A program made the translations under genes and the position numbers. From positions 1-27,270 of the IMG/VR virus record IMGVR_UViG_3300010359_000066: a DNA stretch of 27,270 nt; one strand, 5' to 3'. Positions 3,572 to 23,894 of this stretch are shown in pieces. Source of the stretch: a virus (taxonomy: Duplodnaviria > Caudoviricetes). How positions within the stretch are numbered: position 1 is the first letter of the stretch; each line of letters begins with the position of its first letter. The notes beneath the pieces are model-generated. The model made no database searches. It saw nothing but the letters and a program-made list of their open reading frames with translations, and had not been told where the DNA came from.

Positions 3572-6500
3572 ATGACGATGCTGCCGGACATCGACCAGAC
3601 GTCGTGGGACGAGTACGAGAAGCAAGAGCTTCAGCGGCAGCTTGAGCAGAAGCAGCAGGGCTTCACCCTGCAAAGCATGATCGGTGAGAAGGTCGCCGGT
3701 CTCCAGAGCCTGGTGGGCGGCGGCGCTGGTGCGGAACAACAGGCCGTCGCTCCACCACCTCCCCCCGCGCCCGAGCCGGCTCCCGAACCGTCCGTTTCCC
3801 AGGCGCCTCCCGAGCCGGCTCCGGCACCTCCCCCGCCGCCACCTCCGCCTGCACCTCCCGCGCCCGTGAACAACCAGCAGGACTGGATGGCCCAGGCGAT
3901 AAGTGCCGTGGGCCGCGCCGGGGGCGACGTGCAGCAGTTCGCGTCCAACCTGGGCAGCGGCACCGGCGACATGGTTGCTGGTGCGATCAGCGCTGCCGGC
4001 AAGGCCGGCGCGGACGTGCAGCAATTCGCAGCGAATTTACCTACCCTACCAGCGCCACCTCCGCCGCCACCGACCCCAAGGGTGCCCACGCCGTCACCAC
4101 CTCCTGTTGCACTCCAATCTGACGGCGCGGCGGGTGGTGGCAGCCTTCAGGACTACGCTCGCCAGGCCGCGCAGCGGGTCGGCATTGACCCCGACATCTT
4201 CACCCGTCAAATCCAGCAGGAGTCGGGTTTCAACCCGAACGCCAAGTCGCCGGCCGGGGCCACGGGCATCGCCCAGTTCATGCCGGGCACCGCCCAGGGC
4301 ATGGGCATCGACCCGTCCGATCCGTACGCCGCCCTGGACGCGGCGGCGAAGCTGGATCGCCAGAATCTCGAGAAGTACGGCGACTACCGCTCGGCCCTCG
4401 CGGCGTACAACGCCGGCGGCGGCAACGTGGACAAGTACGGCGGGGTGCCGCCGTTCGAAGAGACCCAGCGCTACGTCCAGAACATCCTGGGCGGCGCAGG
4501 AGGCGCCATTGGCAGCGCCGCCTCCGCCGCTGGTGGGGCGATCGGCGGGGCGGTTTCGGGCGCCGTCTCCGCCGGCCGCCAGGCCGTCACGGACATCTCC
4601 CAGTTCGGCGATAAACAGTTGAACAACGACGAGGCGTACGCCGCGTGTGGACCCGCCGCAGCGGTGCGCTTCGCTTCCATGTACGGCCGCAACCCGAGCC
4701 TGCGCGAGGCGGTGGACCTGGCCAAGCAGGTGGGCTGGACGGCCGCCAACGGCATGGCCGGTCTCGCCTCCGAGAAGAACTTGATGGACAAGCTCGGCGT
4801 CGCCACCAAGATGGTCAGCGGCGGCAACTGGGATCTGTTCGCCAAGGAGGCGCAGAGCGGCAACCCCGTCACCATCTCGACGCCTGGCCACTACTTCTTT
4901 GCCGACGGCTACGACCCGCAGAGCGGCGCGTTCCACGTCGGCCGCAGCGGCTCGGACCTGCGCCAGGGCAGCGAGTGGATGACCCCCGCACAGATGACTG
5001 CGGTGATGGGGCCAGTCCAGGGCGGCCTGCTCGCCGACAACCCGCAGGTGCCGCAGCCGTCGATCGCCGATCAGGACACCAACCCGCTCGGCTACCTGGG
5101 CCGCCTCAAGGACTCCATCACCAGTGGCATCGGCGGTGCCGCGTCCGGCGTCGGCAGCTTCATCGGCAGCAATGTGGGCCAGACCGCCAGCGACCTGGGC
5201 CTGGGAGCGCGGGGCATCGCCGACGCCCTGGGCGGCATGGCCAAGACGCAGGGCGACCAGTTCGCCTCCGACGCCGACGCCGTGCGGCGGCTCAACGACA
5301 CGATCATGGCCACCCCGCCCGGCCAGCCGCTGGAGACAGCTCTCCGGGGCATCGAGGGGCGGCTCCGCGACCTGAACCTGCCGACCACGCCGACGGACCT
5401 GTGGACCCGCGCAGAGGAACCCACGGGCGCCGTCGCCGAGGGGCCGGGCCTGGCAGCGCTCGGACGCGGGTTCAGCGCCCTGGGCACGGGCGTGAAGGCA
5501 CTCACCGACGTCACCCAGGAGATCAGCCCTGGCACCGCCCTGGGCCGCATGCAGGCGGGTGAGGAAGCGCTGCTCTGGTCCGACCCCTCGGCTCGAGCCG
5601 TGATGCTCGCCAACGGGATGTCGCCGGATATGTCGATGGGGGAGTCGGCGCGAGCGCAGATCAGCATGTCGCCGACCGATCGCGCCATCCTCGGTCAGGC
5701 CAGGGCCGACATCCGCGCCCAGGGGCCAGAGGCGGTGTCGTCGGCGGCGTTCGGCGAAGGCACCCGCCGCGAGGAGTACGAGAACCAGTACAACACGCTG
5801 CTCGGCCTGGCGTCGATGGGCATCGCCCCCGAAGGCCTGGCCAGCGGCGCCGGCCGCTTCGCTGCCAGCCTGGCGGTGGACCCTGGCAGCGCCCCCTTCG
5901 CCGCCCTGGGCGCGATCCCCGATGCGCTGCGAATAGTTCGTGGTGCTGCGCCCCAAGCGGGTGAGGCGGCGCGTCTGGTGGAGCGCGGGGCGAACTACCT
6001 GCCAGGGACGCCGGAGTTCAACTTCGAGCAGGCCGCCCAGGCCTCGCGCGATGCCGCCGCCGACGGGCTGACGCATCTCGATCTCCACAACATGCCCGGC
6101 TCGCCCTTCACCCTGACCGGCGGCAAGGGCACACTCAAGACGAACCCCGGCGGCGCCCCGACGCAGGATGCGCTGCGCGAGCTTCTCGACGCCAACCTGC
6201 ACAACAAGGACTTCTACGTGGACCAGGCCGACGACGCCGAGCGGCTGGTCGGCGACAACAAGGCGGAGTGGTTCAGCCTGAACGCGATCAACTCCCCGCT
6301 GACGAAGGTGGAGCGTCAACTGGAGGAGTCGATCAACGCGATGGGTCTGGTGCGCGAGGAGGCGGCGAAGGCTCGTGCCGCTGGGCAGGACGAGCAGCAG
6401 GCGATCCTCAACGCGGTCCGCGACAAGGACCGCCTCAGCCTTGCCAGCACGACTGCGCCGAACAAACGCGCCGATATCGAAGAGTCGTATCTGACGGGAC

Positions 6501-9500
6501 GCTCAGAGGTGACGGGGGCGCCGAAGACGTCCTCGTTCGCAGGCAACTACACCTCCGCTGGTGAGCGGGTGTTCGATCCGCGCATCACCAGCGACGTACA
6601 TAACTGGCGCCTGTTCAACGTTTCTGATGACACCAAACGGGTGGTTCGCAAAGGTAAGGAAATCATCGAACGGCCCTGGGAAAAGAACGCCGCCAATAAC
6701 GACACCGCGTACCGGTTTGTGGAGGCCTCACTCAATGACCTCGCGCGTGAGAAGGGCCTGGAGGGGCATCAGGTCCAGTCCGCCCTATGGAGCGGCATGC
6801 GCGGTCTGCAAAGCGACCCGGAGGCGTACGCCTTATGGAAGGCCGGCAAGTTCTCAGACGCCGTGCGGATGGGCCGCGAGCGGAGCCTGTTCAACCTGCC
6901 AGGCGCGGGTGAGATCGAGGTCGCCATGCAGGCGCCAGGCGTCCAGAAAGCGCTCGCGCGGTACGGCCACCTGCTGAAAGACCCGCCGCCGCTCCAGGGC
7001 TTCGGCATGACGCGGGAGTACCCCGGCTTCGGCGCTGGCAAGCCCAAGGCCCGACCGGCGCGTCCGTCAGGTGCCGCGTTCCGCACCGCCGAACGCGCTG
7101 TTGCGGAGGCCGGTGCGCCGGTCGTGCAGGGCTTGAGTGGTGACGTGGTCCGCGCCCTGGGCACCACACCCGAAGGCATCATCCCGTGGCTCGGCGCCGC
7201 GCACCGCGTGGAGGAAGTGGCGCCCGGTCAGTTCGCGATCCACCTCCCCTCCGGCAACAGTCAGACGGCGCGGTACGTCGCCTCGCTGATTGGCGACGCC
7301 ACCGGTGCTGACTCGGTGCCGATCCACATTCCGAATTTCCGCGCTCCGGACATCGGCGGTTTCAGCGTCGTGGCGGACCCGGAGGCCATCGCCGCCTTTC
7401 GCACGGAGCTTGACGCACAGGGCGTCCCGTACCTCCGTGGGACTACAGGAGCCTCCGTACAGATCCCCCTGAAAGCGGGGTTGGACGGCACCGAAGAGGG
7501 TATAGTTCAGGCGGCGCAGCGAGCCGGTTTGCCGCTGGAGTCGCTGAATCACTACGCGGGAGCAACCGTCAATGCCGTATCCGGAGAGTACACGTCAACG
7601 CTTGGCGAGCTTGGGCCTACCTTTGGACCCGCTACCGCCGAGCGATCCGATCTACAGCAACGGGCTATTAGTCGGCTTCGGGAACTCGGCGCCGGCCGAC
7701 CAGGCAGCTACGCCGGAGACACCAGCCGCATCGCCGCTCCCGACCTATCAGGCGGGGCAGTATCAGGTGCCGACCTCGGAGGGAACCTCGCCTCCGTCAT
7801 CGCTCGAGGAGCAGGCGAAGGCCTGAGATCCGACCTCGCCCGAGGTGCCATCACTGGTGGTATCTCGGGCGGGTATGCCGCCGCCCAACAGCCTGGCGCC
7901 AGCCCTGAGGACATCGCCCTCGGCGCCCTGACCGGCGCCTCCGCTGGCGCCGTACGCGGCGGCCTTACCAGCGCCATCCCGAGCCTGGACACCGCCCGTC
8001 TTGGGCACCTGGCCAACATCATCGGTCGGGACGGTCGGCAGCTTACGAACGAGGACGGCAAGCTCCTCGGCAAGCCCACGCCGCTGGACGAAAAGCTGTG
8101 GATCCCCGGTCGGCCCGAGCCTGGCGCCGACCTGGCCAAGCTGGTTAGCCCGGCCGGCAACCTGCTGAGCACCGTCGGTACCGGCACCACCGAGGCTGGC
8201 ACCGAGGCGACGGGTATCGCTCGGACCCTGCTCGGCGCGGAGCCGTGGACGTACACGCCGCCCGAGGACGTCACCAAGTCGCTGCCCAACCTGATGCACA
8301 TGGCCAACGGCATGCCCGACGTGCAGGCTTCCCTGGCACGGACGAGCGAGGAGTCGAAGGCCCTGATGCAGAAGTACCGCCAGGGCACCATCACCCACGA
8401 CGACCTGATCCAGATGGCCGCCGAGAGTGTCGGCATGACCGCTGACGACTTCCGCAAGACCGAGGTCGGCAAGGCCTTCCGTCCCGAGGAACTGCTCGCC
8501 CTGCGGGGTGCGGTGGCGAAGTCCACCGACGACTGGCTGCGCACCGCTCGCGAGATCCAACAGCAGGGCGGCGTCGAGAAGCTGAGTCCCGAGCAGAAGG
8601 TCAACGCGATGCGCCAGATGCTGGACGCGGCGCAGCTTCAGGCGGTGGGTGTCGGCGGCGCCAGCACCGCTGCGCGAACACTGAACCAGCAGCGCATCAA
8701 CGTCACCCGCATGCTGATGGAGCAGTTGACCAAGGGCACCGAACTGAAGTCCGCCACTGCGGCGCTCACCGAGGCTCGGGCACGTGAAGCCTGGGCCAGC
8801 GCCAAGTTGGGCATCAAGCCGCGCCAGGGCCTCGAGGCGCGGGTCGGTCCGTCGCCGGCGGGGGATGCGATCCGTGGCCAGGCCAAGACCGCCGCCGAGG
8901 CGTACCAGGCGCGGCTGGACGCCGCCAGGGCTGACCTTCGCGCCCAGGGCCGCTACGACGAGAAGAACTGGAACGCTCGCCTGGCGGAACTGGAAGACAA
9001 GGCGAACATCTCTCGAGACGCCGGGATGAAGCAGGCGGTCCAGGCCGAACGCGCCAGGGTGAACGGCAGCTACGACAACTACATCGACGCCGTGAAGGCC
9101 GAGCTTCAGGCGCAGGACAACTTCGACCAGAAGACCTGGGACGCAACGCTGGCCAAGCTGGACAAGCAACACCAGAGCATGCAGGAACGCGGGTCGATGT
9201 GGAACCGCCGCGACGTCACCACGCCCGAGGGGCAGACGGCCTGGTTGCAGGGCATGGCGAACAACGCTCGCGAGGACGCCAAGGCGGAGAACAATCGCGC
9301 CATCGCCGCCTGGAACCGCCAGCTACGCGACGCCGAGACGCAGCGGAACATCGCCAACCGCATCCTCGGCCGTCTTGGTGGCGAGAAGGTCACCGACGAG
9401 ATGCTCAAGGGCATGATCGAGGCGATGGGCAGCGGCGACACGATGCAGATGGCCAAGTACCTCCAGGGTCTCAAGAAGGTCGGCTGGTGGGACCGCATCG

Positions 9501-11284
9501 GCACCCTGCGCTACGCCAGCATGCTCTCCGGCCTGGCGACGCACGAGGCGCAGCTTCTCGGCAACACGGTGATGGGTGGCCTCGCCATGGGTGCCCACCC
9601 GCTCGCCGTCGGTGCCGACATCGCCAGGTACGGCGTCGGCCGCGCCCTGGGCCAGGACGTGGAGCGCCAGCGCTACATGTCCGAACTGCCGGCGATGATG
9701 CGCGGCATGAAGGGCGGCTGGCACTCGGGCCGCGAGGACGCGCTGTCGATCCTCAAGACCGGCATCAACCCCGCCGAGGCGTCGCGGAACTGGGAGGCCC
9801 TGGGCAGCCCTGGCTTCGCGATCGAGCAGACTGCCCTGGGCAAGGCGCTCGGAGATACGGGCAGCAAGGCTGTGAACGCTGCCGTTGAGGGTCCGCTCCG
9901 CGCCCTGGGCGCAGGCGATGCCCTGATCCGAGGCACGATGCGCGGCGCGTTCGCCTACCAGCTTGCCGAGCGCCAGGCGATCCGCGAAGGCTTCGCCGCA
10001 GGCTCCAGGCGCAACGATCGCGTAGAGGAGATCGTGCGCAACCTGCACGAGTTCCCCGAGCTTGTCCAGCAGGCCGACAACATGGCCAAGCGGGTGGTGC
10101 TGCAAGAGGGACGTGGCGAGATCTCGCCGCTGGCGCAGATCCGCAGCAAAGGCATCGCTGGCAACGCCTTCTCTCTGATCGCGCCGTTTGTGCGGACCCC
10201 GTACAACATCGCCGCCCAGGGCGCCGGCTTGACGCCACTCGGCTATGCGGGTGCGCTGACTGCCCTGGCGAAGGGCGACACGGGTGAGTTCGCCGATCGC
10301 GCCGCCAGGGCCACACTCGGCACAGGCATCCTGGGCGGCGCGTACGCCCTGGCCAAGAACGACCACCTGACGGGGGCGATGCCGACCGATCCGAGCGAGC
10401 GCTCCACACTGCCGCCCGGCTGGCAGCCGTACGCCCTCAAGCTGAACCTGCCCGGCCAGGATCAGCCAACGTACGTCAAGTACTCGAACCTGGCTGGTCC
10501 GATCGGGGTGCCGCTGGCGCTGGCGTCGGCGATGGTGGACGCCGAGAGGGACAACCGCTACGTGGAGCCAGGCAACGTCGTGCAGCGCATGTCGAACTAC
10601 ACCGGGCGGATGGCCGGCAGCTTCGGCAAGTACATGCTCGATCAGACGATGATGCAGGGCCTGGGCGCGGTGTATGACGCCGTCAACGAACCCGAGCGGA
10701 AGGGCGAGAACTTCCTCGAGTCGATGGCTGGTCAGTTCGCCCCGTACGCGGCGATGACCCGCTCACTCGATCGCGCCCTGGGCACCGGTCCTCGCGACCC
10801 GCACGGCATCCTTGACGCCCTGGAAGCGGCGTACCCAGGCCTGAGCGGCCTGGTGCAGCCCCGTCGCGACGCCCTCGGCCGCGAGGTGCGCGAGACGCAG
10901 ACCGGCCTGCCAGCGATCATCTCGCCGGCGCGGTACGGCATCGAGCAGGACGACCCGACCCTCCGCGCCCTGGCGGCGGCGGACCAGGGCATCGGCGCCG
11001 CGCCGACGTCGATGCGCGGTTTCGACCTGACGCCCGAGGAGCGGCAACGGGTCTTCCCCGCCCAGGCCGGCTACTACATCCAGCAGGCGGTGCAGGACAT
11101 GGCCTCGCGCCCTGACTACCAGGCCAGGGACCGCGATACGCAGCAGACAATCATGGCACGGGTGATTGAGCAGGCTCGTGCCCAGGCGTTCGCCGACCTG
11201 TACAACTCGTGGTCACCCGAGGAACGCCTGCGGCGCCAGGAGATGAACCGTCAACGCACCGCCGCCGAGGCGCGGCCCTACTAG
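3572..11284 (+). CDS. 2570-aa polyvalent internal virion/ejection protein: SLT lytic transglycosylase (~4145-4490), C39-like Cys peptidase (~4590-5040), HhH-GPD glycosylase-like domain (~6200-6830), coiled coil, conserved C-terminal region
   Basis: SLT motifs QQESGFNP, GIAQFMP, AAYNAG, ETQRYV; peptidase motifs SQF...ACGPAA...GHYF; APKTSSF..ITSDVH..QSALW; C-terminal PFVRTPYNI / GWQPY / RRDALG motifs as seen in large podovirus internal proteins. Confidence 0.8.
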   Translation: MTMLPDIDQTSWDEYEKQELQRQLEQKQQGFTLQSMIGEKVAGLQSLVGGGAGAEQQAVAPPPPPAPEPAPEPSVSQAPPEPAPAPPPPPPPPAPPAPVNNQQDWMAQAISAVGRAGGDVQQFASNLGSGTGDMVAGAISAAGKAGADVQQFAANLPTLPAPPPPPPTPRVPTPSPPPVALQSDGAAGGGSLQDYARQAAQRVGIDPDIFTRQIQQESGFNPNAKSPAGATGIAQFMPGTAQGMGIDPSDPYAALDAAAKLDRQNLEKYGDYRSALAAYNAGGGNVDKYGGVPPFEETQRYVQNILGGAGGAIGSAASAAGGAIGGAVSGAVSAGRQAVTDISQFGDKQLNNDEAYAACGPAAAVRFASMYGRNPSLREAVDLAKQVGWTAANGMAGLASEKNLMDKLGVATKMVSGGNWDLFAKEAQSGNPVTISTPGHYFFADGYDPQSGAFHVGRSGSDLRQGSEWMTPAQMTAVMGPVQGGLLADNPQVPQPSIADQDTNPLGYLGRLKDSITSGIGGAASGVGSFIGSNVGQTASDLGLGARGIADALGGMAKTQGDQFASDADAVRRLNDTIMATPPGQPLETALRGIEGRLRDLNLPTTPTDLWTRAEEPTGAVAEGPGLAALGRGFSALGTGVKALTDVTQEISPGTALGRMQAGEEALLWSDPSARAVMLANGMSPDMSMGESARAQISMSPTDRAILGQARADIRAQGPEAVSSAAFGEGTRREEYENQYNTLLGLASMGIAPEGLASGAGRFAASLAVDPGSAPFAALGAIPDALRIVRGAAPQAGEAARLVERGANYLPGTPEFNFEQAAQASRDAAADGLTHLDLHNMPGSPFTLTGGKGTLKTNPGGAPTQDALRELLDANLHNKDFYVDQADDAERLVGDNKAEWFSLNAINSPLTKVERQLEESINAMGLVREEAAKARAAGQDEQQAILNAVRDKDRLSLASTTAPNKRADIEESYLTGRSEVTGAPKTSSFAGNYTSAGERVFDPRITSDVHNWRLFNVSDDTKRVVRKGKEIIERPWEKNAANNDTAYRFVEASLNDLAREKGLEGHQVQSALWSGMRGLQSDPEAYALWKAGKFSDAVRMGRERSLFNLPGAGEIEVAMQAPGVQKALARYGHLLKDPPPLQGFGMTREYPGFGAGKPKARPARPSGAAFRTAERAVAEAGAPVVQGLSGDVVRALGTTPEGIIPWLGAAHRVEEVAPGQFAIHLPSGNSQTARYVASLIGDATGADSVPIHIPNFRAPDIGGFSVVADPEAIAAFRTELDAQGVPYLRGTTGASVQIPLKAGLDGTEEGIVQAAQRAGLPLESLNHYAGATVNAVSGEYTSTLGELGPTFGPATAERSDLQQRAISRLRELGAGRPGSYAGDTSRIAAPDLSGGAVSGADLGGNLASVIARGAGEGLRSDLARGAITGGISGGYAAAQQPGASPEDIALGALTGASAGAVRGGLTSAIPSLDTARLGHLANIIGRDGRQLTNEDGKLLGKPTPLDEKLWIPGRPEPGADLAKLVSPAGNLLSTVGTGTTEAGTEATGIARTLLGAEPWTYTPPEDVTKSLPNLMHMANGMPDVQASLARTSEESKALMQKYRQGTITHDDLIQMAAESVGMTADDFRKTEVGKAFRPEELLALRGAVAKSTDDWLRTAREIQQQGGVEKLSPEQKVNAMRQMLDAAQLQAVGVGGASTAARTLNQQRINVTRMLMEQLTKGTELKSATAALTEARAREAWASAKLGIKPRQGLEARVGPSPAGDAIRGQAKTAAEAYQARLDAARADLRAQGRYDEKNWNARLAELEDKANISRDAGMKQAVQAERARVNGSYDNYIDAVKAELQAQDNFDQKTWDATLAKLDKQHQSMQERGSMWNRRDVTTPEGQTAWLQGMANNAREDAKAENNRAIAAWNRQLRDAETQRNIANRILGRLGGEKVTDEMLKGMIEAMGSGDTMQMAKYLQGLKKVGWWDRIGTLRYASMLSGLATHEAQLLGNTVMGGLAMGAHPLAVGADIARYGVGRALGQDVERQRYMSELPAMMRGMKGGWHSGREDALSILKTGINPAEASRNWEALGSPGFAIEQTALGKALGDTGSKAVNAAVEGPLRALGAGDALIRGTMRGAFAYQLAERQAIREGFAAGSRRNDRVEEIVRNLHEFPELVQQADNMAKRVVLQEGRGEISPLAQIRSKGIAGNAFSLIAPFVRTPYNIAAQGAGLTPLGYAGALTALAKGDTGEFADRAARATLGTGILGGAYALAKNDHLTGAMPTDPSERSTLPPGWQPYALKLNLPGQDQPTYVKYSNLAGPIGVPLALASAMVDAERDNRYVEPGNVVQRMSNYTGRMAGSFGKYMLDQTMMQGLGAVYDAVNEPERKGENFLESMAGQFAPYAAMTRSLDRALGTGPRDPHGILDALEAAYPGLSGLVQPRRDALGREVRETQTGLPAIISPARYGIEQDDPTLRALAAADQGIGAAPTSMRGFDLTPEERQRVFPAQAGYYIQQAVQDMASRPDYQARDRDTQQTIMARVIEQARAQAFADLYNSWSPEERLRRQEMNRQRTAAEARPY
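3893..4040 (+). repeat. Internal protein duplication AISAVGRAGGDVQQFASNL / AISAAGKAGADVQQFAANL
   Basis: Two near-identical 19-aa units in the N-terminus of the giant protein. Confidence 0.8.
4023..4037. promoter_or_regulatory. Perfect palindrome AATTCGC-A-GCGAATT, operator-like, inside CDS
   Basis: 7-bp perfect inverted repeat built from rare codons (CAA TTC GCA GCG AAT TTA), whereas the sister protein repeat uses common codons. Confidence 0.4.
7572..7826 (+). CDS. Overprinted +1-frame gene (84 aa) inside the giant protein gene
   Basis: GGGAG RBS at 7558-7562, 9 nt before ATG. Host-frame A/T-ending codons rise to about 35/85 here versus 5/60 at 8342-8521 (hand counts). TATAGT -10-like hexamer at 7501-7506. 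Confidence 0.6.
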   Translation: MPYPESTRQRLASLGLPLDPLPPSDPIYSNGLLVGFGNSAPADQAATPETPAASPLPTYQAGQYQVPTSEGTSPPSSLEEQAKA

Positions 11285-21309: not shown

Positions 21310-22553
21310 GCGACCTCACCAGCGAACTGAACCTCTCGCTTGCCGTTGACGACGACGACACTCGCGACTACCTGGCTCAGTCCCTGCGAGACAGCCTCAC
21401 GATCATCGATGGGCTGTTCAACCAGGCGACTGGCCACGCCCATAACGGCTCACATCAGGGTGGCCAGCTTCAGTTTCTGGACCTGAGCGTCGGCGGGAAT
21501 CTGACGGTCACGGGCGCCTCGGACCTCCACGGCTCGGTGCATTGCTACGCCAACCTGACGGTGAACGGCATCGCGACGCCCAATAGCCTCGACGTCACGA
21601 CCACCAGCCACCTGCGGGGTGCGGTGACGATGGACGCCGGCCTCACCATCACTGGCGCCATCAACTCCACGGGCACGGTCACCATCGGCACCGATTTACA
21701 GGTCAATCGCGACCTGGCGGTGGCACGGAACGCCAGCATCACCGGCACGCTCACTGTCGGTGCCATCACCACCGGCGGGGGTGGCCTGAACGTGGGCGGC
21801 AACCTGATTGCGAGCGGCGTCGTCATCGCCGCACGCTACTGCACGACTGGCTACGACACCGGTCAGGTGATGAGTATCAACGGCAGCGGCGTCGCCTCTG
21901 GCTACTGGTACCAGCGTGGCTCCACCAGCTACCGCTGCTACGACAATGCCGACTTCGCCTATGGTGTGGGGATCGCGGCCAGCACCCTGGTCCAGCGTGA
22001 CGGCTCGGGCCAGGTCCAGGCCCAGGGCGTGTACATGCCATCGGGCGCCCAGGGCGGACGCCCGACCTACGTCGTGGGCCAGACCGGCGACGGGTGGATG
22101 CGATGGTGGCCAGCGAACGCTATCGGCCCCCCAGCAGTGACACGCTTTATGCAAGGCAGCATCGGCGTCCCTGGCCTTGGTCCAGGCGGTGGCAACACCG
22201 ACGCCTACATCTCGGCGTGGTCCAACTCGCTGGGGGCGGGTGGGCTACCAGGCAGCACCTTCAGCGTCCCGTACGCCGGCTACTACTCGATTGCCGGCGG
22301 TTGCCAGGGCAGCAACCTGACAGGCAACAGCGAGACGCTGCGGATCCGCCTGATCTCCAGGGACCACGGCGAACTGGACAATGCCGACACCCCCATCAAG
22401 ATCAGCAGCTACTGGGGCGCGTACTTCTCGTGGTCGGGATTTCTGAACGCCGGCGAGACGCTGCGGATCAACTTCCAGACCAGTTTCGACGCGATCAACG
22501 GCCAGGGCGAACTGCTTGTGGCGTTCATCCCGGTCTCCGACTACCCCAACTGA
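21306..22553 (+). CDS. Tail spike/needle-like protein (415 aa)
   Basis: ATGA overlap gives start 21306; GHAHNG (HxH) motif; L.V.G.L.V.G trimeric beta-helix repeats; C-terminal beta-sandwich (FSVPYAGYYSI...LNAGETL). Confidence 0.65.
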   Translation: MSDLTSELNLSLAVDDDDTRDYLAQSLRDSLTIIDGLFNQATGHAHNGSHQGGQLQFLDLSVGGNLTVTGASDLHGSVHCYANLTVNGIATPNSLDVTTTSHLRGAVTMDAGLTITGAINSTGTVTIGTDLQVNRDLAVARNASITGTLTVGAITTGGGGLNVGGNLIASGVVIAARYCTTGYDTGQVMSINGSGVASGYWYQRGSTSYRCYDNADFAYGVGIAASTLVQRDGSGQVQAQGVYMPSGAQGGRPTYVVGQTGDGWMRWWPANAIGPPAVTRFMQGSIGVPGLGPGGGNTDAYISAWSNSLGAGGLPGSTFSVPYAGYYSIAGGCQGSNLTGNSETLRIRLISRDHGELDNADTPIKISSYWGAYFSWSGFLNAGETLRINFQTSFDAINGQGELLVAFIPVSDYPN

Positions 22554-22563
22554 GGAGGGACGC

Positions 22564-22863
22564 ATGGAAGGACTCGAGATCGTAGAGAACGGGGTGGCGG
22601 ACGCCCTGCCGCCGCTGTTCGATACGGAAGCACACCTGGGCGCTGGCGCCCTGCGGCGCTTGAGCCGGCTCCAGCAGCGTGTGGAGGGGGCTACGGACGT
22701 CGCCCAGGCCGCGATCAACGCACACACCGCCGCACGGCAGGCGTATGAGGAGGCCTTCTTGGCGGCCTGTGAGGACGCGCAGATCTTCGTCCCGCCGGGA
22801 CCGCACGACGTGGACATCGACTGGGCCAGCGGCGCGGTGCGCTTCACGGTGAAACAGCAGTGA
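22564..22863 (+). CDS. Helical protein (99 aa), possible fibre chaperone
   Basis: GAGGAGG RBS before ATG 22564; coiled-coil centre; follows the spike gene. Confidence 0.6.
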   Translation: MEGLEIVENGVADALPPLFDTEAHLGAGALRRLSRLQQRVEGATDVAQAAINAHTAARQAYEEAFLAACEDAQIFVPPGPHDVDIDWASGAVRFTVKQQ

Positions 22864-23042
22864 GCGAGTACTCCATCGGCCCTGGGGTGCTCCAGGCGAT
22901 GGCCGACGCCGGCGATGAGCCGAGGTCCGACGAGCAGTACGTGATCCTCGCCGAGGGGCACAAGATCTCGCAGACCTTCGGCCGCGATGCGCTCTACTAC
23001 TGGCTCGAGGAGGACAACGCGGTTCGCCGCGCTCCCTTTTGA
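22860..23042 (+). CDS. Endolysin N-terminal part (60 aa), putative cell-wall-binding module
   Basis: GTGA coupling; G.P.SDE.Y...Q.F...L.YW pattern reminiscent of LGFP-like wall-binding repeats; ends in CCC TTT TGA. Confidence 0.6.
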   Translation: MSEYSIGPGVLQAMADAGDEPRSDEQYVILAEGHKISQTFGRDALYYWLEEDNAVRRAPF

Positions 23043-23532
23043 GGCAGGTGGAAGCTGGCCCGAGCCGCCCGTCACGTGGGATCCGTACACCGACCAGCCA
23101 CCGCAGGTGTACTCGTGGACGTGCTCGGCCTGCGCCACGGACTGGGTGCTGCGAGCGACGCACATGGGCGGCAACGCCGACATCTACGCCGGCCGCGAGG
23201 ACACCATCTATGCCATTGGCTACCCGCAGAACATCAACCCCCAGTACGGCCTCATGGACGGCAGCGGGGCGCAGCTTCAGCGGGTGCTCGGCGAGTACGG
23301 CATGGACTCCGAGCACGGCTGGCTGGACTACGACACCGTGTACGCCCTGGCCCAGGACACCACGGGCATGATGTCGGGCGGCGCCTGGTACCACTGGGTC
23401 GCCTTGCGCGGCGTCCAGGGCCAGAACCTGTGGATCGCCAATTCAGCCCCTGGCTACAAGGGCGTGTGGGATGTCCTCAGCAGATCCGACTTCAACCGAC
23501 TCGGCCCCTTCTCAGTCGTCTACCTCGTCTGA
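23041..23532 (+). CDS. Endolysin catalytic part: C39-like cysteine peptidase, probably reached by +1 frameshift from 22860-23042
   Basis: Q...WTCS...YHWVAL...IANSAP (Q/C/H/N); protein-like sequence begins right at the upstream stop; lies just before the holin-like genes. Confidence 0.7.
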   Translation, partial: EAGGSWPEPPVTWDPYTDQPPQVYSWTCSACATDWVLRATHMGGNADIYAGREDTIYAIGYPQNINPQYGLMDGSGAQLQRVLGEYGMDSEHGWLDYDTVYALAQDTTGMMSGGAWYHWVALRGVQGQNLWIANSAPGYKGVWDVLSRSDFNRLGPFSVVYLV

Positions 23533-23746
23533 GCCGCCGCGTGATCCACGCGGCACGGTGGCGATCATCCTGGCCATCGCCGTCGGGGTGTCGCTACTGG
23601 TCTTCGAGGGCTATGTGCTCTACGAAGCTATCTCCAGCGTCAGGGGCTTGAGCGAGAACTCTACCCAGGTGCTCATCGCCGCCTTCTCAGGCCTCATCGG
23701 CGCCCTGGCGGTGTACCTGGGTGGCCGCGTCATCGGAGGGAAGTGA
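23471..23746 (+). CDS. Holin-like two-TM membrane protein (start uncertain: ATG 23471 or GTG 23558)
   Basis: Hydrophobic stretches VAIILAIAVGVSLLVF and VLIAAFSGLIGALAVYLGG. Confidence 0.6.
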   Translation: MSSADPTSTDSAPSQSSTSSEPPRDPRGTVAIILAIAVGVSLLVFEGYVLYEAISSVRGLSENSTQVLIAAFSGLIGALAVYLGGRVIGGK

Positions 23747-23747
23747 C

Positions 23748-23894
23748 ATGCAGATTGCTATGCCCACCATCACCGTCGGCTGGGTGATCGCGCTACTGGT
23801 GTTGATCCTGGCGATTGTGCTGATCGTCGTCAGTCAGGTGCCGCTCATCATCGGCCTGCTGATCGCGGGTGTCGCCCTGTCGCGGCTGCTCTAG
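23748..23894 (+). CDS. Second small membrane protein (48 aa, MQIAMPTITVGWVIALLVLILAIVL...), holin-like; absent from the ORF track
   Basis: GGAGGG RBS 7 nt upstream; two hydrophobic helices. Confidence 0.7.
   Translation: MQIAMPTITVGWVIALLVLILAIVLIVVSQVPLIIGLLIAGVALSRLL

Follow-up and report, generated by a model that had tools for sequence, protein, structure and literature searches.

Endolysins composed of two polypeptides from one gene were described for CTP1L, CD27L, CS74L, Lys170, LysIME-EF1, and LysP7951: the full-length enzyme is accompanied by an accessory domain translated from an internal start, and the two assemble as complexes with ratios of 1:3, 2:2, and 1:5 (PMC9430671). The word "frameshift" is absent from the main text of that source. 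Programmed +1 frameshifts are known from other genes. At the influenza A PA-X site, UCC_UUU_CGU, the P-site tRNA-Phe slips on UUU-C with a CGN codon in the A site (PMC3498833). The +1 shifts in Listeria phages of the PSA/A118 type occur at CCC_UGA in structural genes, and that of prfB occurs at CUU_UGA (PMC5009743, PMC3711429, PMC10885494). Phage tail assembly chaperone genes (G/GT) use a -1 shift and give a short abundant and a rarer extended product.

In this work, comparative sequence analysis was applied to a 27,270-base stretch of a virus record (hereafter, the window), which contains capsid, tail-fibre-like, and SLT-bearing genes and one gene that is very likely subject to ribosomal recoding and probably encodes a two-product endolysin made by programmed frameshifting. 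Like the internal-start endolysins, this gene would, by analogy, give a full enzyme and a free domain; unlike them, it has an N-terminal domain and a broken frame and lacks the defining internal start. The PA-X site resembles the TTT-CGN junctions of 41 of the 97 relatives with a +1 break (see below), whereas the system described here has a bacterial host, carries a stop at the A site or adjacent to it, and exists in -1 and in-frame versions within one family. With the Listeria phage and prfB sites the window shares a +1 slip next to UGA in a bacterial system; the differences are that Phe is the conserved slipping codon, that the gene is a probable lysis gene, that the A-site stop is dispensable, and that the internal Shine-Dalgarno (SD) stimulator, which in prfB-type sites closely precedes the P-site codon, was not found. 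As in G/GT, a short abundant and a rarer extended product are proposed, although the gene is a different one, the window uses +1, and no downstream structure was detected. No endolysin made by frameshifting, and no two-part lysis enzyme produced by such a route, came up in the literature searched, which comprised mostly titles and the beginnings of abstracts, with subscription journals poorly covered. The family-wide toggling of shift direction is unusual.

Gene layout and authenticity of the frame break

The features of the locus, in window coordinates, are as follows:

22564..22863, plus strand: upstream ORF of 99 aa, its TGA stop overlapping the GTG with which the small domain begins
22860..23042, plus strand: LGFP-like accessory (predicted cell-wall-binding) domain, 60 aa, zero-frame product
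23034..23040, plus strand: slippery site CCC-TTT-T (Pro-Phe), where re-pairing in the +1 frame to CCT-TTT is possible
23040..23042, plus strand: TGA at which the free domain terminates; it occupies the A site while Phe sits in the P site
23041..23076, plus strand: Pro/acidic linker in the +1 frame, assigned by amino-acid composition, end approximate
23077..23532, plus strand: cysteine peptidase domain of the papain/C39-like type, encoded in the +1 frame
Gln 23104, Cys 23122, His 23392, Asn 23440: predicted catalytic set of the peptidase
23558..23746, plus strand: small ORF with two hydrophobic segments and an inferred start codon, holin-like candidate
23748..23894, plus strand: very hydrophobic ORF of 48 aa, holin-like candidate

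The 99-aa upstream ORF has no Pfam or PHROG match, and the small-domain ORF is likely translationally coupled to it. The latter starts with GTG and ends with GCT CCC TTT TGA at 23031-23042; re-reading from TTT at 23038-23040 in the +1 frame continues with GAG GCA GGT and reaches a stop at 23530-23532, which gives a predicted product of 59+164 = 223 aa and confirms the coordinates and product length of the preliminary description. The site appears to reflect more than chance: the heptamer CCCTTTY occurs on the plus strand of the window only once, at 23034, and TTT accounts for only 24 of the 181 Phe codons in the window genes.

The preliminary description had suggested checking for four versus three T at 23037-23040. 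A contig of run X1 (possibly the source of the record) spans 22523-23322 and a contig of run X2, from another study, spans 22940-23389; these assembled contigs, as distinct from raw reads, show 0 differences and 0 gaps relative to the window and are thus identical to it across these positions, and run X3 does not bridge the junction. Since contigs of two studies match the junction exactly, the frame break is not a sequencing indel; it is real and conserved. A sequencing error, a pseudogene, or DNA-level phase variation in which only the in-frame genomes are active retains almost no plausibility and is already largely refuted: in-frame versions do exist, one base apart in a short C/T run, but the junction was matched exactly in the two studies, 126 split junctions stand against 11 in-frame ones, and the split loci keep the catalytic residues and evolve with dN/dS of about 0.2.

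Relatives and junction classes

Related loci (at least 255) were gathered in six collection scans, three of which contributed the best 80 of 100, 83, and 105 matches, respectively. One locus, L176, was left out as probably the window's own record, and the window was added instead. After merging of identical 120-base junctions, the matches listed contained 142 distinct junctions with the small domain, and a further 24 loci carried the peptidase without it. The peptidase lies in the +1 frame at 97 of the 142 junctions (the window counted), in the -1 frame at 26, and in frame at 11; another three shift -1 into an Amidase_2 domain and five are truncated where the contig stops. The counts are of distinct junctions and should not be read as numbers of independent events.

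In a peptidase tree of 139 rows built by a quick method, the -1 class requires seven changes, six of them forced by well-supported branches, and the in-frame class requires five, three of them forced. A tree of small-domain DNA from which the junction codons were excluded requires 13 phase changes, at least six of them forced; recombination may inflate the counts on both trees. Members of the different classes are intermingled on the two trees, and switches among +1, -1, and in-frame arrangements have occurred repeatedly.

The three amidase loci (L086:2177-2719, L101:2168-2716, and L192:891-1436) combine the small domain with a zinc amidase of the Amidase_2 type through a -1 shift at C-CCT-TTC, which suggests that the switch is portable between catalytic domains. 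A different arrangement was observed at L169:1698-2000, where another small ORF, LGFP-like by eye, is terminated by TAG just before the same peptidase; there the peptidase is in the +1 frame without a start codon and without the Pro-Phe slippery motif, possibly as a result of another recoding event or an error.

Codon signature and proposed slippage mechanism

All 97 junctions of the +1 class have TTT followed by T or C, compared with 105 TTT among the 625 other Phe codons of these genes; CCC precedes TTT in 88 cases and another codon in nine. In the -1 class, T precedes TTY at 26 of 26 junctions and at all three amidase loci, and these 29 junctions comprise 18 of the form C-CCT-TTY, a canonical X-XXY-YYZ heptamer, and 11 of the form GCT-TTY. 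In total, the codon phase of the motif predicts the direction of the shift at 126 of 126 junctions. The in-frame relatives read PF-E, PF-G, PF-D, or PF-L at the junction with no extra residue, as expected of the +1 or -1 product and not of a -2 product, and a -2 shift was ruled out on this ground.

The preliminary description had interpreted the site as a "shifty stop" and had proposed to look for TTT-TGA and the frame break in homologues. The break and the TTT proved to be conserved throughout the +1 class, but the stop did not: the A site holds TGA in the window and in 50 of the 97 +1 junctions, and a sense codon in the other 47 (CGN in 41), while 29 further junctions shift -1 and 11 are in frame. 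In those 47 +1 relatives a stop follows two to four codons after Phe. Thus, a stop is not essential in the A site, though one follows within a few codons. A pause at a hungry codon is not evident for the sense class, given that CGG makes up 85 of 364 Arg codons here and is thus no rare codon. The junction position +4 (window 23041), the middle base of the A-site codon, is G at 91 of the 97 +1 junctions (TGA or CGN), and this may reflect linker residues or a recoding preference.

No conserved stimulators were detected near the junction. Neither an upstream hairpin, nor a downstream one (mean z of 0.00, -0.87, and -0.06, with similar control regions), nor an SD or other purine-rich element is conserved among the relatives, and simple folding of the -1 relatives with pseudoknots excluded showed no downstream structure above control. 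In the absence of a hairpin and of a nearby SD, the efficiency of the shift may be low. Stops close the peptidase frame within 10 codons upstream of the junction in 24 of 97 +1 loci and 13 of 26 -1 loci, which confines the shift to the junction region.

These patterns suggest the following model. Most ribosomes would halt at UGA and release the free 60-residue predicted wall-binding domain, and a minority would slip +1 at CCC-UUU-U to produce the 223-residue protein with the domain, the linker, and the peptidase. The peptidyl-tRNA-Phe (anticodon GAA) would re-pair from UUU to UUY, possibly assisted by a slip of tRNA-Pro from CCC to CCU and by slow termination. Slippage on UUU and on CCC yields an identical peptide; the nine junctions that lack CCC suggest that the slip on Phe is the required one. 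The two phases of the Pro-Phe motif would then have opposite consequences, with CCC-UUU-Y allowing only +1 and C-CCU-UUY only -1. Re-pairing of tRNA-Phe across a conserved break, as originally suggested for the window, is in agreement with TTT-Y at 97 of 97 +1 junctions and T-TTY at 29 of 29 -1 junctions.

The match between phase and direction fits ribosomal tRNA-Phe slippage, since RNA polymerase could not sense codon phase. Slippage of the polymerase on CCCTTT(T/C), with mRNAs one base shorter or longer, is an improbable source of the second product. Nearly the same DNA run, CCCTTTY, is common to all classes, and polymerase slippage on mixed runs was reported for the Roseiflexus IS630 element (PMC5009743), homologues of the locus being found in Chloroflexota genomes as well; against this, the runs hold only three or four T, the direction follows a codon phase that the polymerase cannot read, the 11 GCT-TTY and nine non-CCC variants retain only the re-pairing of Phe, and no upstream hairpin is conserved.

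Translation, selection, and fold of the peptidase

The shifted frame of the linker consists of 64% Glu, Asp, Pro, and Ala with about 0% Arg, compared with 23-24% Arg in the other two frames; this linker-type composition begins right after Phe and in the shifted frame only. The shifted frame is free of stops over the next 10 codons at 97 of 97 +1 and 26 of 26 -1 junctions. All complete peptidase frames are intact, with at least 140 aa and Gln-x5-Cys (88 of 88 in the +1 class and 21 of 21 in the -1 class), and 14 more run off their loci. The median dN/dS of the peptidase is 0.20 in the +1 class (57 usable of 68 pairs) and 0.22 in the -1 class (16 usable of 18 pairs). The out-of-frame peptidase is therefore under purifying selection, and linker and peptidase are both selected.

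The claim of the preliminary description that the peptidase has no credible start of its own held on comparative grounds, but the missing ribosome-binding site cited for it turned out to be a weak sign. In the peptidase frame of the window, no start codon follows the junction until GTG 23107, which is the codon next to that of the conserved Gln 23104, and the relatives share no conserved start. No SD match was found at ATG 22987 in the window; the same is true of the small-domain GTG at 22860, so a missing ribosome-binding site alone proves little and the comparative data carry the point. Reinitiation at TTG 23039 was rejected, since it lies in the wrong frame. The frequency of an A right after start codons was also counted but set aside because of confounding.

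The most direct alternative, that the locus contains two separate genes and that the peptidase starts at ATG 22987 or, in relatives, at a Met three residues before the conserved Gln (Gln-3), is very hard to sustain. Start codons do occur at Gln-3 in 76 of 123 shifted loci and further upstream in 54 of 123. Only six of these 76 Gln-3 codons, however, are preceded by an SD of at least four bases, compared with 85 of 122 small-domain starts; 17 of 122 loci lack any start codon before Gln, and the window itself has Gln instead of Met at this place. Moreover, the Met is present in 17 of 19 fusions to a helical domain (described below), an aromatic-Asp/Asn motif upstream of Gln-3 is conserved in 109 of 123 loci, the position of ATG 22987 is common to only 10 of 122, and separate genes would leave the slippery codons unexplained.

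The peptidase has no Pfam (C39 included) or PHROG match, and no cultured phage matches it. Its structure model (pLDDT 86) retrieved in Foldseek the C39 peptidase domains of PCAT/ComA, the pseudomurein endoisopeptidase PeiR, and papain-like toxins with E values from 1e-5 to 1e-3. The initial designation "C39-like" is thus appropriate at the level of the C39/papain-like fold, but not as membership of the Pfam C39 family. C39 peptidases use Asp as the third catalytic residue. The present peptidase shares with them the papain-like fold, Gln-x5-Cys, and His, and differs by an invariant Asn135; the other invariant residues are Q23, C29, and H119.

The LGFP-like domain

The small-domain ORF of the window has no Pfam or PHROG match, and the Pfam LGFP family (PF08310) matched 0 of 29 members of the small-domain set at E values up to 5. 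The structure model of the domain (pLDDT 90) has LGFP clusters as its Atlas neighbours (0.91). The best VIA match is the C-terminal domain of C. glutamicum mycoloyltransferase A (Z 6.4, rmsd 2.4, 55 aligned residues); the top matches, 6swz (Z 6.4) and 6sx4 (Z 5.7), are both under the guide value of Z 8, and Foldseek retrieved nothing for the domain at E 0.001. The LGFP fold comprises one short helix together with three to four strands. The C-terminal domain of mycoloyltransferase A presumably consists of LGFP repeats. Based on these models, the small domain may be described as LGFP-like, with a modest likeness, and as a predicted wall-binding module. LGFP motifs were proposed as wall anchors and are present in one mycobacteriophage endolysin, with three repeats in Barnyard gp39 (PMC3314691). 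The LGFP repeat of PF08310, as in gp39 and in mycoloyltransferase A, is normally tandem, whereas here it is a single N-terminal copy without a Pfam match.

A search of all representatives with the small domain gave 53 matches, a few of them spurious. Proteins of the Amidase_2, NlpC/P60, and glucosaminidase types carry the domain as well, at either end, and GH25 is a weak further case. The signature of internal-start endolysins was found only in two homologues with C-terminal copies, L262 and L263, where an in-frame ATG lies 5 nt after AAGGAGG or GGAGG. Among the 22 C-terminal copies, 12 have a Met at positions -8..+3 relative to the domain start, compared with a background of 15%, and the other 10 have no Met there. 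At L262:1464-1500, in a Chloroflexota genome, two tandem AAGGAGG-N5-ATG internal starts precede the C-terminal copy, which is followed by an SLT gene.

Genomic context and probable role in lysis

In 65 of the 93 loci whose flanks are complete, the gene has a homologue of the 48-aa hydrophobic ORF next to it. The neighbouring ORFs are candidate holins, as judged by hydrophobicity and position, and a hydrolase domain with an accessory domain adjoining holin-like genes is an arrangement found in endolysins. In three near-complete relatives, no amidase or other lysis-cassette hydrolase was detected among 129 ORFs (at least 90 aa, low-GC3 ORFs excluded); the other wall hydrolases among them are domains of giant virion proteins and, in two of the three, a small transglycosylase near recT. 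Because the small domain is shared with other wall hydrolases, the neighbours are holin-like, and no other lysis-cassette hydrolase was found, the gene product is likely an endolysin. The endolysin assignment made from the window alone is therefore consistent with its context, namely the holin-like neighbours and the occurrence of the domain in amidase, NlpC/P60, and glucosaminidase proteins.

Alternatively, the two products could be part of the virion, one as decoration and the other as a peptidase bound to the particle, by analogy with capsid and tail genes that are expressed by frameshifting. The gene comes after tail-fibre-like genes, and structural genes are where the +1 shifts at CCC known from phages occur (PMC5009743). 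Nevertheless, this role is unlikely given the holin-like neighbours, the sharing of the domain with wall hydrolases of these three types, and a giant virion protein that already provides an SLT and a C39-like domain. This 2570-aa protein (window 3572-11284) is encoded upstream of the capsid gene and carries the SLT domain and a weak C39_2 stretch, to which the peptidase shows no similarity; its counterparts in relatives carry DUF7178, GNAT, and LPD38. The small transglycosylase near recT is Rpf-like (PF06737) and lies in the replication region (L266:5337-5705, L270:3570-3944).

Possible functions of the free domain

The preliminary description proposed that a binding domain is supplied both free and fused, and this is what the locus is predicted to encode: the probable binding domain would be made as the zero-frame 60-aa protein and within the shifted 223-aa product. 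By analogy with the two-polypeptide endolysins, we somewhat favour the interpretation that the free domain is itself a wanted product, which would co-assemble with the full enzyme or bind the wall alongside it. An N-terminal domain could not be freed by an internal start, so the frameshift would do the job. Where the A site holds a sense codon, a stop follows it immediately in 43 of 47 and in 12 of 12 loci, compared with stop rates further on of 0.030 and 0.004 per codon; such tight placement suggests that release of the free domain is selected. Relatives appear to make free and fused domains by other means as well, including the internal starts and a separate gene: L076 combines an in-frame fusion with an independent gene for the domain, the latter without the slippery motif. 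In addition, an unnamed helical domain fused to the peptidase is also encoded as a standalone copy in 19 of 20 loci, which include two duplicates, the twentieth being cut by a contig end. This domain of about 50 aa (L175:4622-5474, L006, L008, L010, and 16 further loci) belongs to no Pfam family and is a candidate oligomerising or binding module.

The same frameshift could instead serve dosage or timing by throttling a toxic enzyme, with the free domain as a by-product or a competitor for wall sites. This function is a serious contender, though we consider it the less probable of the two. Two complete genomes (G002, G004) have the in-frame fusion only and no separate domain gene, which indicates that the free domain need not be in large excess in every case; the product ratio can evidently invert, and the lack of stimulators makes low output likely. 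Dosage control fits poorly with the tight placement of stops after sense A-site codons, and the internal starts, the separate gene, and the duplicated helical domains add free domain without lowering enzyme output. The in-frame junctions keep C-CCT-TTY in 11 of 11 cases, with a -1-frame stop one or two codons on; free domain could be released in this way, or the arrangement may be left over from a recent origin.

A broader proposal, that we advance tentatively, is that the Pro-Phe motif acts as an evolvable ratio switch (+1, -1, or in-frame) for a multi-subunit endolysin of soil phages, that the in-frame form sheds free domain by a -1 slip into the stop, and that single LGFP-like units assemble in trans into a repeat stalk that is encoded in tandem elsewhere.

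Significance and possible hosts

If the frameshift is confirmed, lysis genes would be added to the few phage genes known to be decoded in this programmed way, and two-product endolysins would gain a route that is workable with an N-terminal binding domain. The family represents a natural mutagenesis panel, with one motif in +1, -1, and in-frame arrangements, with stop or sense codons in the A site and no obvious stimulator, and the minimal rules of bacterial tRNA-Phe slippage therefore become directly testable. Such lysins are missed or truncated by gene callers. The analysis also points to an unannotated predicted wall-binding module for uncultured soil bacteria, possibly Chloroflexota.

The genome searches covered Chloroflexota and Gemmatimonadota. 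Of 401 Chloroflexota genomes, two contain the small domain and a third the peptidase, and these three belong to a single class; one of 301 genomes matched in the phylum of a record labelled Gemmatimonadota, namely that record itself. The host is possibly a member of Chloroflexota, whereas the LGFP neighbours and the capsid, the best cultured matches of which are Arthrobacter phages at 41%, lean to Actinomycetota. Additionally, a terminase large subunit with an intein-like segment was observed in a relative of the -1 class (L272:12166-14406).
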